A DNA stretch of 64,000 nucleotides from an uncultured Candidatus Saccharibacteria bacterium (GCA_964356795.1 CAYHIK010000004.1:2743-66742); one strand, 5' to 3'. Positions 188 to 62,713 are shown, numbered from the stretch's first letter. The notes: generated by a model from the letters alone, not told the origin. Translations and numbers: made by a program.

Positions 188-235
188 CTACGGCCTACTG
201 GCCTTTAGTATTTCCTCGCTCTCGCTCGGTCATCG
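188..235. repeat. Partial third copy (C) of the conserved 5' block of repeats A/B
   Basis: cggcctactggcctttagtatttcctcgctctcgctcggtc matches cggcctactggcctcagtacttcctcgctcgcgctcggt at 60590-60628 and the block at 62318-62348. Confidence 0.45.
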
Positions 236-38618: not shown

Positions 38619-38724
38619 GAATCCTAATACCCCTATGAGGGGCTTTCGGAGCGCGGCGGCGCGAGAACGAGACACTCCGCCAGTCAGGCGGAGATGTCGT
38701 ACCCGAAAAGGGGTATTAGGATTC
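38619..38724 (+). repeat. Structured about 105-nt repeat element, copy 2
   Basis: Perfect 16-bp outer stem gaatcctaatacccct/aggggtattaggattc; same core GGCTTTCGGAGCGCGGCGGCGCGAGAACGAGAC; hairpin ctccgcc-AGTCA-ggcggag; GTCGTAC. Confidence 0.55.
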
Positions 38725-44591: not shown

Positions 44592-44713
44592 GCGAAGATA
44601 GATTCCCGTGCCCATACAAGAGGCTTTCGGAGCGCGACGGCGCGAGAATGAGACGGCTCGGCAGTAAGCCGAGAACGTCGTACCCGAGAATGGGTATGGG
44701 AATATATCTTCGC
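44592..44713 (+). repeat. Structured repeat element, copy 3
   Basis: Core GGCTTTCGGAGCGCGACGGCGCGAGAATGAGAC; hairpin ctcggc-AGTAA-gccgag; GTCGTAC; 13-bp outer stem attcccgtgccca/tgggtatgggaat with two G-T wobbles (+ strand), extended by gcgaagata/tatcttcgc. Confidence 0.5.
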
Positions 44714-52297: not shown

Positions 52298-52327
52298 AAT
52301 ATGCCATATTAATATGGCATATGTCAA
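52298..52327 (-). promoter_or_regulatory. Promoter-like element with a 20-bp perfect palindrome ATGCCATATTAATATGGCAT next to a TTGACA -35
   Basis: Same architecture as the cassette promoters at 59269-62294; the -10 is weak (CATATT). Confidence 0.35.
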
Positions 52328-52363
52328 GTCTACGGGCGAAGCAGAGAAGACCTGCGGAACGGA

Positions 52364-58056: not shown

Positions 58057-58086
58057 AAAAACCGCCCACATGGGCGGTTTTTCTGT
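58057..58086. terminator. Bidirectional hairpin terminator
   Basis: aaaaccgccca-catg-tgggcggttttt. Confidence 0.55.
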
Positions 58087-58089
58087 GTT

Positions 58090-58153
58090 AGCTGGGGCTC
58101 CTAGACGAAGTTAGAACTATACTACTGGGCGGAATGTCGTCGTTTGCATACCA
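58090..58153. repeat. Conserved about 60-nt cassette motif (copy 1 of 4)
   Basis: agctggggctcctagacgaagttagaactatactactgggcggaatgtcgtcgtttgcatacc; similar copies at 59299, 59992 and 60799. Confidence 0.5.
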
Positions 58154-58162
58154 TTTTGCATT

Positions 58163-59268: not shown

Positions 59269-59298
59269 AGCGTACCACATTATTGTGGCATCTGTCAA
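59269..59298 (-). promoter_or_regulatory. Promoter P2: TTGACA–18 bp–TACGCT with palindrome CCACATTATTGTGG in the spacer
   Basis: Read on the minus strand; positioned about 25 bp upstream of the RBS and ATG of gene 58974-59246. Confidence 0.5.
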
Positions 59299-59362
59299 GC
59301 TTGCTGGGGGTACTGGGCGAAGTTAGAACCGCATTGATAGTGGGCGCTTCGTCGTTTGCATT
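59299..59362. repeat. Conserved cassette motif (copy 2)
   Basis: gcttgctgggggtactgggcgaagttagaaccgcattgatagtgggcgcttcgtcgtttgcattgc; the stem gcgaag/cttcgtc covaries with gacgac/gtcgtc in copy 4. Confidence 0.5.
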
Positions 59363-59960: not shown

Positions 59961-59990
59961 ATTATACCATATTTCTATGGTATAAGTCAA
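59961..59990 (-). promoter_or_regulatory. Promoter P3: TTGACT–18 bp–TATAAT with palindrome TATACCATA-gaaa-TATGGTATA in the spacer
   Basis: Minus strand CTTGACTTATACCATAGAAATATGGTATAATTAGAC, then the RBS. Confidence 0.55.
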
Positions 59991-59991
59991 G

Positions 59992-60045
59992 TTAGCTGGC
60001 GCTCCTAGACGACATTAGAACTGCGCTACTCAATGAAGGGGCGAT
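59992..60045. repeat. Conserved cassette motif (copy 3, 3' half diverged)
   Basis: gttagctggcgctcctagacgacattagaactgcgctact... Confidence 0.4.
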
Positions 60046-60095: not shown

Positions 60096-60527
60096 TTACG
60101 GAAAGATGGTCTCTCCATTCCACGGACAGTTGGGACACTCCTGCTTGTGGAGCGCCTCGATTTCGGAGAGGTGCGCTGCGATCTCCCTATCGAGGGTGAT
60201 ACATGCCTTGTTGTAGGCATTGCCCGCCTCGTTGTAGGCGGTGCGGGCCTTGTCGAAGGCGGTGTGGGCCTTGTCGAAGGCGGTGTGGGCCTCGTTAAAG
60301 ACGTCGCCTGCCTCGTTGTAGGCGGTGCGGGCCTTGTTGTAGGCGTCGCCTGCCTTCAGCACGGCTTCGGGCAATACACCCTTCACGGGCTGGAAGAGAC
60401 GGATGCGAAGCTCGCGCTCCTCCACGGCCTTCTGCGTGTTGATGTACGCGGCTCGTTCATCGTAACTGTCGCACCATTCGAGAAGTATGAGATGGTGCAC
60501 GTGCCAGAAGAGACCTCTCTGCTTCAT
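60096..60527 (-). CDS. Hypothetical protein; paralog of 44960-45391, containing 7 tandem heptad repeats
   Basis: RBS GGAGGT then ATG; the shared FWHVHH..LLEWC and CPNCPW motifs. Confidence 0.4.
   Translation of the reverse strand: MKQRGLFWHVHHLILLEWCDSYDERAAYINTQKAVEERELRIRLFQPVKGVLPEAVLKAGDAYNKARTAYNEAGDVFNEAHTAFDKAHTAFDKARTAYNEAGNAYNKACITLDREIAAHLSEIEALHKQECPNCPWNGETIFP
60210..60356. repeat. Seven tandem 21-bp repeats inside the CDS (encoding 7-aa A[YF][ND][EK]A[GRH][TDN] repeats)
   Basis: gttgtaggcggtgcgggcctt and variants repeated x7 head-to-tail. Confidence 0.8.
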
Positions 60528-60544: not shown

Positions 60545-60574
60545 AGTATACCACTATATTGTGGTGCGTGTCAA
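60545..60574 (-). promoter_or_regulatory. Promoter P4: TTGACA–18 bp–TATACT with palindrome CCAC-aatatag-TGG in the spacer
   Basis: Minus strand CTTGACACGCACCACAATATAGTGGTATACTCTCATCGGAGGTAACAC-ATG. Confidence 0.5.
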
Positions 60575-60798
60575 GTTTGCTGCACATTCGGCCTACTGGC
60601 CTCAGTACTTCCTCGCTCGCGCTCGGTTGCGGGACTTGGATTCACCGTCGGTCAAGGCGTCGTCAGTCACTCCGCCTCGCCTCACGGCTCCGGCCCTCAC
60701 GGTATCATTTACTAATGATACATCGTTCCGGGCTTCGAATCCAAGCCCTCCATCAACCAGCGAATATAAAACACCCGAAGTGGGTGTTTTATATTCGT
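60571..60798. repeat. Repeat A (about 230 bp): conserved blocks, a 17-nt copy of the tRNA-Gln 3' end, a covarying hairpin and a palindromic terminator
   Basis: About 85-90% identical to 62291-62521 outside two variable hairpins; contains tgcgggacttggattc (the tRNA 3' end) and gaatataaaacacccgaagtgggtgttttatattc. Confidence 0.7.
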
Positions 60799-60862
60799 AG
60801 CTGGGGGTACTAGACGACGTTAGAACTATACTACTGGGCGGAATGTCGTCGTTTGCATACGT
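60799..60862. repeat. Conserved cassette motif (copy 4)
   Basis: agctgggggtactagacgacgttagaactatactactgggcggaatgtcgtcgtttgcatac. Confidence 0.5.
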
Positions 60863-60866
60863 TTTA

Positions 60867-60909
60867 GCATAAAAAAGACCCCGGACAGCGTTGTGTTGCT
60901 GCCGGGGCC
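60867..60909 (-). terminator. Rho-independent terminator of gene 60915-61706
   Basis: Minus strand ggccccggcagcaacacaacgctgtccggggtc followed by TTTTTTATGC. Confidence 0.55.
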
Positions 60910-60914
60910 GTGAC

Positions 60915-61706
60915 TTACTTCGGAGAGATAGACAGGAGTGCGGGATTGAGAACCCCACCCGACTCGTTGGCTTTTTCGCCCTCGTTTCCGAGCTGAGTCT
61001 TGACGTTGTGCCAGCGGCGAAGCTGTTCGCCGTACTTCCAGCACTGCGAGAGCATTGAGACGGCGCATCCGTACATGAAGCCCGTGATGCCCTCGAGGTC
61101 AGCCTCGGAAGATGCTGCGTCCGCAACATCTTCCAGTCTCTTCCCTTGAGCCATCTCGATCTGCATGAGACGCGCCCAACGTTCCGCGTAAGCGAGCACC
61201 GCGCTGCCGTAGCCGTCCTGGTTGCTTTCTCTGAACTTGAGCCAGCCGCGCCAGCCACTCGCGCTCTCAATTGCAAGGCCTGGATCGTTGAGCAGCTTGG
61301 CCTCGACGGCTTCGCGGTGGGCACGAGCCTTCTTCTCGTACTCCGCCCCTCGCCTCTGTCGCTTGCGCTCGTTCTCGGCTTCGATGCGAGCGTCGTTCGC
61401 CTTCTCTGTGTCTGTGAGAGCGGGCTTCGGATGGGGACCAACACTCTTGCCGATGTAGCCACTCAACGCTCGCGACCAGTCGCGGTAGATGAGCTCGGGA
61501 TTGGAGTCCTCGCGCACCGACACGACCACATCGTTGAACTCGAACTTGATGACCCGCTTCTTCTTCGCCGAGAGCGCGATTGCTTCGGCGATGGTCGGCC
61601 CGATACTTGAGCCGCACATCACGTCGTACACGCCACCCTTCTCTCGCCACAGATTCTCCACGTTCTCCTCCCTTTCTCTTTGCTTCTCAGAACTTGGTTG
61701 CCCCAT
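60915..61706 (-). CDS. Hypothetical protein; N-terminal domain paralogous to 51669-52037, basic coiled-coil middle
   Basis: Start set at MGQPSSEKQ (8 bp after the upstream stop); the longer ORF in the track overlaps the 61714-62229 gene. Confidence 0.4.
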   Translation of the reverse strand: MGQPSSEKQREREENVENLWREKGGVYDVMCGSSIGPTIAEAIALSAKKKRVIKFEFNDVVVSVREDSNPELIYRDWSRALSGYIGKSVGPHPKPALTDTEKANDARIEAENERKRQRRGAEYEKKARAHREAVEAKLLNDPGLAIESASGWRGWLKFRESNQDGYGSAVLAYAERWARLMQIEMAQGKRLEDVADAASSEADLEGITGFMYGCAVSMLSQCWKYGEQLRRWHNVKTQLGNEGEKANESGGVLNPALLSISPK

Positions 61707-61713
61707 CGTTGTG

Positions 61714-62229
61714 TCAGTTGACTGAGTGGTGGAGTCCCTCGACTCCGCTGACGAGCCCGTTGCCCGCACTGACTGCACTTGGGGCCCAGCCCTGCCTGAT
61801 GGTGGCGAGCCACTGTTCGTAGGTCGCGCCCATGTCTGCGAAGGCAGGAGCGTTGTTGTCGGCGAGCCAGCGAGCGAGAGCTTCCGGCGTCTCCATGACT
61901 GGAGAAATCGGCGTGCCCTCGGAGGTGGATTCGTACATCTGGTAGTGAGTGCGCTCCGCCTCCGGCCAATCCGGCATGGAGTCTTCCTTCTTAGGAATGG
62001 GGCCGTTCTCCTCTTCGAAGGTCCTACCGTCGGTCGAAGCGTCACGAGGCACGAAGCTGGGCGGTTGCGTTGCGTAGCTGAGCTCGTTACCCAGGGCCCA
62101 CTGACACGCTTCGATCTTGTAGGCTTCGAGCCTCTCCTTGAAGCTGTCGCTCAACAGCGGAATGAAGTAGCCCCTCGCGTCCCTGGGATGCTCCCAGTTC
62201 GCGGAAACTCTGCGAACTTCTCTGCTCAT
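61714..62229 (-). CDS. Hypothetical protein (cassette gene)
   Basis: RBS AGGAGG then ATG (MSREVRRV); 171 aa. Confidence 0.35.
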   Translation of the reverse strand: MSREVRRVSANWEHPRDARGYFIPLLSDSFKERLEAYKIEACQWALGNELSYATQPPSFVPRDASTDGRTFEEENGPIPKKEDSMPDWPEAERTHYQMYESTSEGTPISPVMETPEALARWLADNNAPAFADMGATYEQWLATIRQGWAPSAVSAGNGLVSGVEGLHHSVN

Positions 62230-62264
62230 CTCGACCTCCTTGTAGTGTCAAGAACTCAAACAAT

Positions 62265-62294
62265 AGCATACCACATTTATATGGAATAAGTCAA
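62265..62294 (-). promoter_or_regulatory. Promoter P5: TTGACT–18 bp–TATGCT with a partial palindrome CCATATAAATGTGG
   Basis: Minus strand CTTGACTTATTCCATATAAATGTGGTATGCT, about 30 bp upstream of the RBS. Confidence 0.5.
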
Positions 62295-62521
62295 GTTTGC
62301 TGCACATTCAGTCTGCTAGCCTCAGTACTTCCTCGCTCGCGCTCGGTCGCGGGGCTTGGATTCACCCGCCACTCTCGATGCCACCAGTCGTGGCATCTCG
62401 GTTCTGGGCTCCGGCCCTCACGGCCACATCAGCTGATGTGGCATCGTTCCGGGCTTCGAATCCAAGCCCTCCATCAAACAGCGAATATAAAACACCCGAA
62501 GTGGGTGTTTTATATTCGTAG
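62291..62521. repeat. Repeat B (about 230 bp), abutting the 3' end of tRNA-Gln
   Basis: See repeat A; contains gcggggcttggattcacc (tRNA 3'-end-like) and the covarying hairpin ccacatc-agc-tgatgtgg, where A has tatcatt-tact-aatgata. Confidence 0.7.
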
Positions 62522-62592
62522 CTGCGGGACTTGGATTCGAACCAAGATAGGCGGATCCAAAATCCGCAGTCCTACCATTAGACGACCCCGCA
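62522..62592 (-). tRNA. tRNA-Gln (anticodon UUG)
   Basis: Minus strand TGCGGGG-TC-GTCT-AATGGTA-GGAC-T-GCGGA-TTTTGGA-TCCGC-CTAT-CTTGG-TTCGAAT-CCAAG-TCCCGCA-G. U1:A72 as in bacterial tRNA-Gln; T-loop TTCGAAT; anticodon loop with U33 then UUG. Confidence 0.8.
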
Positions 62593-62713
62593 ATGTCCTA
62601 CCATTAGACCCGCCTCGACTTGACGTCTTCGGCGAGGCGGGCGATCCCGCAATGTGAAATACTAACGGGGAAATAATACAGGAAAAATAGGTTTATGTCG
62701 ACTTTTCGAAGAT

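Follow-up and report, generated by a model that had tools for sequence, protein, structure and literature searches.

Hairpin units with direct and inverted copies of a tRNA-Gln 3' end in a cassette array of a Patescibacteria chromosome: a probable gene-less integrative module

Introduction

Patescibacteria (Candidate Phyla Radiation, CPR) have tiny genomes and are naturally competent, and their gene exchange is poorly understood. Recombination of folded single strands is known for integron attC sites and for the attP site of CTX phage. The present report concerns two related units, A and B, situated downstream of the gene for tRNA-Gln(UUG), the sole tRNA gene in a 64,000-nucleotide stretch of DNA (hereafter the window) from an uncultured Candidatus Saccharibacteria bacterium (GCA_964356795.1, CAYHIK010000004.1:2743-66742). 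The contig originated from a groundwater metagenome (0.1-micrometre filtrate, Hainich well H41), and the host organism is an ultra-small bacterium of the Patescibacteria/CPR. Both units are diverged copies of one insertion module, which carries no genes and folds into a rod. On balance, they are likely to represent a miniature integrative module that inserts site-specifically at the tRNA-Gln 3' end or at surrogates of it, within an array built by accretion of cassettes. Unit B, present in the window, is missing from the corresponding site of a relative, the units hold a contiguous 22-nt duplicate of the tRNA end, one and the same junction was re-used, a conserved hairpin (P2) covaries, and the arms of related units are re-matched to different tRNAs.

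Integrative elements that target tRNA or tmRNA (transfer-messenger RNA) genes and accrete in tandem have been described, e.g. the tycheposon islands of Prochlorococcus (bioRxiv 10.1101/2020.12.28.424599). The present locus resembles arrays of this type in that insertion occurs at a tRNA or tmRNA 3' end, inserts are flanked by partial tRNA copies, newer inserts displace older ones from the tRNA, and small sets of cargo genes differ between close relatives. It differs in that the unit carries neither genes nor an integrase and combines an inverted with a direct copy of the tRNA end, and in that the cassettes, of about 0.7-1.7 kb, have promoters of their own. As expected of tRNA integration, a direct repeat of the tRNA end (21 of 22 positions) and an unoccupied site in a relative were found. 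An integrase inside the element and beside the tRNA was not: no recombinase or integrase was detected in the 64-kb window among the 29 open reading frames (ORFs) scanned against Pfam, all cassette genes included.

Integron attC sites and their cassette arrays (PMC5027507) provide a second comparison. Like attC and the attP of CTX phage, the units are imperfect inverted-repeat hairpins with a variable centre, in which structure is kept and stems vary; the two strands are non-equivalent, and the units lie between unidirectional small cassettes at a short conserved core. In contrast to integrons, no IntI gene (in the same ORF scan), attI site or GTTRRRY/RYYYAAC core was found here. The junction core CAGCWAAC reads GTTAGCTG on the other strand and fails at the third R of GTTRRRY. 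Furthermore, the cassettes are led by TTGACW-N18-TATRMT promoters, whereas integron cassettes are promoterless, and the arms of the hairpin unit, which is present at two of six junctions, copy a tRNA 3' end. No description of integrons in Patescibacteria was found in the searchable literature.

MITEs (miniature transposable elements with inverted repeats) and the mosaic intergenic repeats REP, BIME and ERIC (reviewed in PMC10969869) are likewise small, non-coding, structured and assembled from repeated modules, with a short edge repeat resembling a target-site duplication. Units A and B differ from them in that the inverted repeats are internal and in that one specific junction is occupied instead of dispersed sites, with two full copies in 64 kb. 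The terminal inverted repeats that, together with a target-site duplication, characterize MITEs were not observed, since the unit's two termini, CGAATAT... and ...GAATGT, are no inverted repeats of each other; flanking it is an imperfect 7-nt repeat. Integration at tRNA genes with cassette accretion is thus already known, whereas neither a tRNA-matched hairpin unit nor a Patescibacteria-wide in-frame mini-repeat of the kind reported below could be found described.

Architecture of units A and B

The tRNA-Gln(UUG) gene (62521/2-62592, minus strand) was identified by ARAGORN and matched the Rfam tRNA model with 57.3 bits. All genes between 52 and 62.3 kb lie on the same strand, to which the features below also belong unless stated otherwise. 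An initial annotation of the window had reported two repeats of 85-90% identity beyond the tRNA 3' end, each with two segments replaced by different but equally well-paired hairpins and each ending in a 35-bp palindrome. The repeats are real, their identity being 83.5-83.7% over about 243 bp (sub-blocks of 88% over 132 nt and 83% over 102 nt), and so are the replaced segments, which are well paired; both repeats fold far better than shuffled sequence. The palindrome is identical in the two copies (60761-60797 and 62482-62518) and comprises 37 nt. Repeat B lies beside the tRNA as had been noticed, at a distance of 3 nt and not directly abutting it, and the start-to-start spacing of A and B is 1720 bp instead of the 1.9 kb proposed.

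The module measures about 168 bp, or 215 bp when a nested 47-nt mini-repeat (hereafter the block) is included. In tRNA orientation it consists of the palindrome T, an inverted copy of the tRNA 3' end (IR), the hairpins P2 and P3, and, in direct orientation, a 22-nt copy of the tRNA 3' end with its trailer (DR). The corresponding sequence at the tRNA itself, GAATCCAAGTCCCGCAGCTAC (62518-62538), comprises the last 22 nt of tRNA-Gln plus trailer and is the putative attachment core.

Unit B (62304-62518, 215 bp) begins with T (62482-62518, on either strand), a perfect palindrome predicted by the terminator scan to be a bidirectional intrinsic terminator; its 16-pair stem is followed by a T-rich run (CTGTTTGATG), and A/T runs are present on both sides. 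IR-B (62455-62475; GATGGAGGGCTTGGATTCGAA) is an inverted copy of the T-loop, T-stem and acceptor start of tRNA-Gln. The conserved hairpin P2-B (62414-62454) has the form CCC-GGA-ACG-AU-(8-bp variable stem, loop AGCU)-CGU-GA-GGG and is followed by the variable hairpin P3-B (62364-62409), whose closing pair is G-U on the minus strand. P3-A and P3-B show no sequence kinship and are equally well paired. The direct copy is split by the block (62304-62350) into DR-B part 1 (62351-62363; GAATCCAAGCCCC), which has the allele of the relative (C at tRNA position 66), and DR-B part 2 (62295-62303; GCAGCAAAC), the remainder of the tRNA end plus trailer, directly after which the -35 box of a promoter follows. 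In general form, part 1 of both units can be given as GAATCCAAGYCCC. The edges of unit B are marked by a 7-nt imperfect repeat, TTGCTGC (62297-62303) and TAGCTGC (62519-62525).

Unit A (60584-60797), located between the end module of a cassette (D5) and a promoter, shows the same architecture, with T at 60761-60797, IR at 60734-60754, P2 at 60693-60733, P3 at 60644-60688, DR part 1 with the T66 allele at 60631-60643, the block at 60584-60630 and DR part 2 at 60575-60583.

Copies of the tRNA 3' end of 16-17 nt had been noticed in both repeats. The 16-nt motif GCGGGACTTGGATTC is indeed present without mismatch in A (60628-60643) and the tRNA and with one mismatch in B, and each repeat also contains it in inverted form; the leading TGC of the motif, however, belongs to the block, and the tRNA-derived part consists of 13 nt plus 9 nt beyond the block. 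Removal of exactly 47 nt from unit B restored a contiguous 22-mer (GAATCCAAGYCCCGCAGCAAAC). Without its block the unit reads GAATCCAAGCCCCGCAGCAAAC, which agrees in 21 of 22 positions with the tRNA end plus trailer of the relative (locus L076, see below). Unit A without the block yielded an equivalent 22-nt copy with the window's own allele T66. Thus C66 is found in the unit B copy and in the relative, and T66 in the window tRNA and the unit A copy. IR and DR pair with each other in a 12-bp stem that closes a three-way junction, so that the 16-mer forms one side of a stem.

The tRNA-like motif is not generic. Beyond the tRNA, A, B and their inverted copies, the 16-mer was not found in the window; with up to three mismatches there were eight matches, where 2.2 were expected, and none of 100 shuffled sequences reached eight.

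An empty site at the tRNA-Gln gene of a relative

Alignment of flanks with related genomes, as the initial annotation had suggested, revealed a site without unit B. Two contigs of sample SRR22387883, L076 and L039, overlap by 24 nt and, when joined, yield a valid tRNA-Gln gene in the order dUTPase, 125-aa gene, tRNA-Gln, D4 promoter (see below) and 171-aa gene. The dUTPase flank is 78.6% identical to that of the window. In this relative the tRNA end (...CCCCGCAG, with ...GAATCCAAGCCCCGCAG at the junction) is followed by CTAAC and then by the promoter (TTGACTTATACC, with its TTGACT box) and the 171-aa gene. T, IR, P2, P3, DR and block are all missing, and the window has 222 nt more at this position, bounded by TAGCTGC and TTGCTGC. 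The tRNA-promoter junction of the relative is an empty site for unit B.

The uninterrupted junction, CAGCTAAC joined to TTGACTTATACC, also exists inside the window, at the boundary (59991) between a D5 module and a D4 promoter. One side of the conserved junction (...CAGCTA^AC-TTGAC...) is formed by the tRNA-Gln 3' end in the case of B, or by a tRNA-end-like terminus of an older cassette in the case of A, and the other side by the promoter of the next small gene cassette. The same canonical junction is therefore broken at an identical nucleotide two times, once by A and once by B. Together with the 22-nt direct copy, the empty site bears out the original proposal that the repeated tRNA 3' ends mark site-specific insertion at tRNA-Gln. 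A motif found at many generic sites, combined with relatives free of indels, would have spoken against that proposal, and neither was observed.

The promoter and 171-aa gene (window 61692-62303, L076:55-668) were 95.8% identical between the two lineages, compared with 78.6% in the flanking core (dUTPase) and 85% in the tRNA. This difference indicates a recent horizontal transfer of the promoter/171-aa cassette into the same tRNA-Gln site in both lineages. Beyond the 171-aa gene, on its 3' side, the relative has another cassette than the window.

In the earlier interpretation, A and B were the attL- and attR-type ends of a single two-gene segment inserted by an integrase specific for tRNA-Gln. 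The two genes are indeed flanked by direct copies of the tRNA end, and the region is evidently a hotspot of integration. In the relative, however, the first gene and its promoter adjoin the tRNA without B, and B is therefore not the end of a two-gene segment; the second gene of the relative also differs from that of the window. Moreover, A and B are homologous over the whole 215 bp and each contains an inverted copy, unlike simple att repeats, and the ORF scan yielded no integrase. The two-gene segment bracketed by attL and attR is accordingly regarded as very improbable.

Related units at other tRNA and tmRNA genes

A scan of metagenomes for the P2 core gave 36 matches, of which 32 occurred by chance in coding sequence and four were real (L040, L045, L074 and L051, the last being the window's own contig). 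In L040 the unit follows a tRNA-fMet gene and its arms copy the tRNA-fMet 3' end; in L045, T and a D5-like module come after the unit; and in L074 it lies without a nearby tRNA and holds a degenerate block. A covariance model built from the P2 sequences additionally detected a diverged P2 beside tRNA-Pro in L025 (E = 1e-9). P2 with compensatory changes is thus present in at least five genomes, and the arms adjoining it match tRNA-Gln, tRNA-fMet or tRNA-Pro. Units without P2 that follow the same logic (tRNA end, terminator, inverted copy of the tRNA end) were observed at tRNA-Leu in L010, where a direct copy of the tRNA end is present as well, and at tRNA-Gln in L028. At each of L040, L010, L025 and L028, the arms correspond to the tRNA of that locus.

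A homologue of the 171-aa gene, 77% identical, was found directly 3' of the tmRNA gene in another locus. This homologue is framed by direct copies of the tmRNA end; behind the terminator comes an inverted copy, and the D5-like modules of the locus have the tmRNA terminus as their end.

These occurrences bear on the possibility that the unit is not mobile. It might have originated once by extension of a palindrome, through template switching at the tRNA terminator, and then have been copied to a second junction, between cassette boundaries that resemble each other (D4 promoter, CAGCTAC), by homologous recombination or by gene conversion; the relative would have lost the unit or never had it, and its role would be only that of a terminator or insulator. 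The junction flanks of A and B are indeed homologous, their D4 promoters being 69-89% identical and CAGCTAC common to both. The tRNA end, T and IR form one long quasi-palindrome, and the unit adds a terminator that is missing from the tRNA-promoter junction of the relative. Units with a homologous P2 are, however, found in at least five genomes, at three different tRNAs or at none, with the arms re-matched each time, and either spread between genomes or repeated independent origin is therefore needed. A and B also differ by about 16%, with whole hairpins exchanged, and are therefore not recent copies of each other. Local copying of a non-mobile unit thus appears clearly improbable.

Two further observations concern tRNA genes outside the window. 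In L040 (9562-9917), an intron of about 265 nt, similar to group I introns (Rfam RF00028, E = 9e-4, under the gathering score), splits the tRNA-fMet gene following the anticodon. In L026 (4015-4140) and L033 (1979-2150), which are other Patescibacteria loci, direct copies, 39-50 nt long, of tRNA 3' halves (tRNA-Ala, tRNA-Ile) stand downstream of the intact tRNA at a distance of just 14-45 nt; their appearance is that of att scars enclosing next to nothing.

Folding and covariation

Compared with shuffled sequence, A and B gave fold z-scores from -7.2 to -8.4 over both strands (-7.2 and -8.4 for unit B). Across five P2 sequences, five pairs had changed on both sides and 98.7% of the cells were paired, and none of 500 shuffles equalled the observed covariation score. 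When the partner was slid by 1-3 columns as a control, pairing fell to just 28-43%. The internal-loop bases of P2 (GGA/GA and AU) were invariant. The tRNA-sense strand, which carries the G-U pairs, folded better by 3-12.5 kcal/mol in all four complete units. Conservation of structure over sequence, as in attC sites, was seen in A, B and their relatives, but not at the four cassette junctions that have D5 only.

The same features raise the possibility that the unit is a gene for a structured, tRNA-like non-coding RNA read from the tRNA-sense strand, in which the helix copies the acceptor/T-arm stack of the neighbouring tRNA. The helix might be bound by RNase P, RNase Z or other tRNA-binding proteins and act as a decoy, processing signal or regulator that travels with the cassettes. 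Such tRNA-like structures are known from the mascRNA-type 3' modules and from bacterial YrlA, with which the unit shares a long helix reproducing the acceptor/T-arm stack. It differs from them in having no T-loop, D-arm, anticodon arm, promoter or Rfam match, and in taking its helix sequence from the adjacent tRNA gene. The pattern of P2, with conserved loops and covarying stems, is typical of functional RNA; the tRNA-sense strand is the better-folding one; the units of L040, L025 and L028 have an extra hairpin where the D and anticodon arms leave the acceptor/T stack of a real tRNA; and the arms match whichever tRNA is local. Because of the conserved P2 loops and the G-U asymmetry, a tRNA-like RNA stays a serious rival.

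Against an RNA gene, there is no space for a promoter, as the unit starts 6-9 nt after a strong terminator and that of L040 lies between two terminators. In a search of Rfam 15, the tRNA was the sole match; nothing was found over A or B even at E <= 10, nor over the L040 unit at E <= 1. Pairing in the acceptor portion of the helix is poor in A and B (3 bp only), and the block splits the helix's 3' strand. RNA function alone would also leave the presence/absence pattern and the exact re-use of one junction unexplained. Overall, a tRNA-like RNA is judged unlikely. A reading of the plus strand as a tmRNA-like or convergent tRNA was rejected, since neither T-arm nor acceptor pairing was present and ARAGORN gave no match. 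A primer-binding site was rejected as well, the complement of the tRNA end stopping short of the discriminator and CCA.

Proposed mechanism

If the units are integrative modules, the direct copy would have arisen as a duplicate of the attachment core when site-specific recombination took place at the tRNA 3' end. The recombinase would act in trans and be encoded outside the window. By analogy with integron attC and the attP of CTX phage, the inverted copy may let a single strand fold and present the duplex of the tRNA end. The inserted module would also place a terminator between the tRNA and the promoter of the cassette, and the region from 58 to 62.5 kb would be an accretion array of cassettes seeded at the tRNA.

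Several observations weigh against site-specific integration. The empty site is a single case that derives from short, low-coverage Logan contigs joined via the 24-nt overlap. Alternatively, unit B may have been lost from the relative by a deletion via the 7-nt repeat. One difference, T66/C66, says little about where a crossover took place. Units are present at just two of the six cassette junctions, the other four having D5 only, and the unit is therefore not a general recombination site of the array. D5 itself was considered as an attC-like hairpin and rejected, RNAalifold giving no consensus pairs. No recombinase was found in the window ORFs, as stated above, and none was seen in the small related loci, so that the enzyme is hypothetical. 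Three scans of viral contigs brought no autonomous carrier to light; with the unit body, the block and D5 as search patterns, all matches were chance ones in coding sequence. The invariant GGA/GA loops of P2 and the G-U asymmetry, finally, suit a functional RNA equally well.

Beyond the integrative module itself, a wider proposal is put forward tentatively and with low confidence: Patescibacteria may capture cassettes by a system that starts from tRNA and tmRNA 3' ends, has no integrase close by and uses gene-less hairpin units as recombination substrates that fold as single strands. These substrates would combine direct and inverted copies of the target tRNA end with P2 as a putative protein-binding hairpin. 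Such a system would be similar to integron attC in function, distinct in evolution and retargetable to different tRNAs, and it might be fed by single-stranded DNA from natural uptake. Alongside it, a second and unrelated selfish repeat of 47/48 nt would have spread throughout the group and be tolerated in frame in essential genes.

The locus provides a concrete tRNA integration hotspot that is testable in sequence data. In it, promoter-led cassettes, one of them with an anti-Thoeris (Tad4) domain, appear to move between lineages that are about 79% identical in core genes, and a new gene-less structured unit is found whose arms are re-matched to different tRNAs. Should the unit be a recombination substrate, it would represent an undescribed route of cassette capture and could offer a natural landing-pad design for genetic tools in Patescibacteria.

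The cassette array

Between tRNA-Gln and an operon encoding an ECF sigma factor, HlyD, ABC and MacB proteins lies a series of small cassettes. This region is an array of small promoter-led cassettes that differs between close relatives. Each cassette begins with a near-consensus sigma-70 promoter and ends with a terminator and D5. The promoter family D4, of the sigma-70 type with a palindromic operator, comprises five copies on the minus strand with the form TTGACW-N18-TATRMT around the palindrome ATACCA...TGGTAT. One copy (62265-62294; as a repeat, 62268-62302) drives the 171-aa gene, and the others are located at 60545-60574 (60548-60582), 59961-59990 (59964-59998), 59272-59306 and 52301-52335. 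The shared palindrome suggests that one repressor controls all cassettes.

The cassette-end module D5 is present in four copies (60796-60870, 59991-60030, 59299-59338 and 58087-58161). It contains ATAGTTCTAAC and, at 60796-60870, ends in ...ATAGTTCTAACGTCGTCTAGTACCCCCAGCTAC, which resembles the tRNA-Gln end. Over roughly its last 11 nt, D5 duplicates the 3' terminus of the local target, tRNA-Gln in the window and tmRNA in L077. Homologues of D5 were found in L037, L045 and L077/78 (L077:1638-1730 and 2645-2737), those of L077/78 ending in a copy of the local tmRNA 3' end. A derivation of D5 from a decayed tRNA 3' half was rejected: local alignment was not significant, with 14 to 239 of 500 shuffles as good, and only the last 11 nt or so were alike.

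A terminator homologous to T, designated T' (58059-58095, on either strand), lies after the left-most D5 and before the sigma-factor operon and probably represents the native terminator on the array's far side. The relatives L080 and L081 have the order tRNA-Asn, terminator, sigma operon. In relatives at 60-70% amino acid identity, whose synteny was followed via dUTPase and the sigma factor, the sigma-HlyD-ABC-MacB operon is kept and the tRNA-Gln neighbourhood is not.

The cargo between B and A (60915-62229) consists of two genes. The 171-aa protein (61714-62229) has 1689 homologues and no Pfam domain, and its function is unassigned; the 263-aa protein (60915-61706) carries a C-terminal Tad4 (Thoeris-inhibitor) domain. 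Other cargo includes an NYN nuclease gene, and NYN/HEC-09 was the sole match in the defence and naming libraries. Downstream of unit A, a 143-aa ORF contains at least six tandem 21-nt units (60185-60373), i.e. repeats of seven residues.

The 47-nt block

The initial annotation had listed a partial third copy of the repeats at 188-235. This stretch is a solo copy of the block alone (189-232, plus strand), the rest of the unit being missing; a similar context surrounds the block in L034. The 26-nt core of the block occurs three times in the window (205, 60602 and 62322), where none was expected. A 24-nt pattern was used to scan one genome per species (185,579 species) and yielded 28 loci from at least 15 metagenome-assembled genomes (MAGs) of independent studies. 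Twenty-seven of these loci are labelled as Patescibacteria lineages (Saccharibacteria, Kaiserbacteria, Yanofskybacteria, Paceibacterota and Parcubacteria) and one only as 'bacterium'. A profile search of the 28 loci found 41 copies, or 44 with the three of the window; some were in tandem, and one MAG held at least 12.

The block is about 85-95% identical across Patescibacteria classes of widely different G+C content. Its 4-bp hairpin covaries (GGCC, GGCT/AGCC, GGTC/GACC, GATT/AATC and GCGC), with 108 of 120 cells in Watson-Crick pairs and, as the only wobble-type cells, three A-C cells that are G-T on the reverse strand. Five of its six reading frames are open, and in-frame copies were observed in polA (5'-3' exonuclease; L014), in the gene for an HI0933-like flavoprotein (L011), in miaA (L018) and in trpF (L031). 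The inserts are spanned by Pfam domains and occur in either orientation and in several reading frames; the peptide encoded by the block in PolA is predicted to read ATERERGSTEASRPNV. The window's own HI0933-like orthologue has no block insert.

Contrary to the earlier assumption, the distribution of its copies argues that the block is an independent selfish mini-repeat unrelated to tRNA-Gln. Its place inside the att-like copy would be coincidental and date from the ancestor that A and B have in common. The nearest parallel is given by the Rickettsia palindromic elements, reportedly the subject of work by Ogata et al. in 2000. Like these, the block is a short multi-copy repeat that is found in frame in conserved genes as well as in intergenic DNA, is open in five of six frames and contains a covarying hairpin. 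Unlike them, it has only 47-48 nt with a 4-bp hairpin and spans Patescibacteria classes instead of one genus. Rickettsia palindromic elements and other selfish repeats that genes tolerate in frame are mentioned in PMC1779305. No description of the block was found in the searchable literature, and it is a candidate for a new class of selfish DNA as well as a marker for Patescibacteria.

Other features of the window

The best named matches of the dUTPase were from Yanofskybacteria and Yonathbacteria (60-67%). Core genes of the window include those for MnmA, NAD kinase, RNase Y, PurA and MgsA. A phage origin was rejected, because a phage collection gave no near match and the window is core chromosome (MnmA, RNase Y, PurA, MgsA). 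Contigs L001-L004 were uninformative for comparison, being at least 99.9% identical to the window and from the same organism.

Directly upstream of the real tRNA-Gln gene, a pseudo-copy of its nucleotides 1-25 was observed that is interrupted by a 33-nt hairpin (62594-62651). The relative L039 (78.6% identical) has no such 5' pseudo-copy at its tRNA-Gln; a similar pseudo-copy with hairpin lies upstream of tRNA-Asn in L080 (9733-9808). Three copies of an 87-nt G+C-rich structured repeat, 72-78% identical to one another, occur at 316-402, 38630-38716 and 44611-44697. Rfam gave no match to this repeat at gathering thresholds and none to the 38.6-kb copy even at E <= 1. The copy at 38.6 kb is framed by inverted arms of 31 nt.

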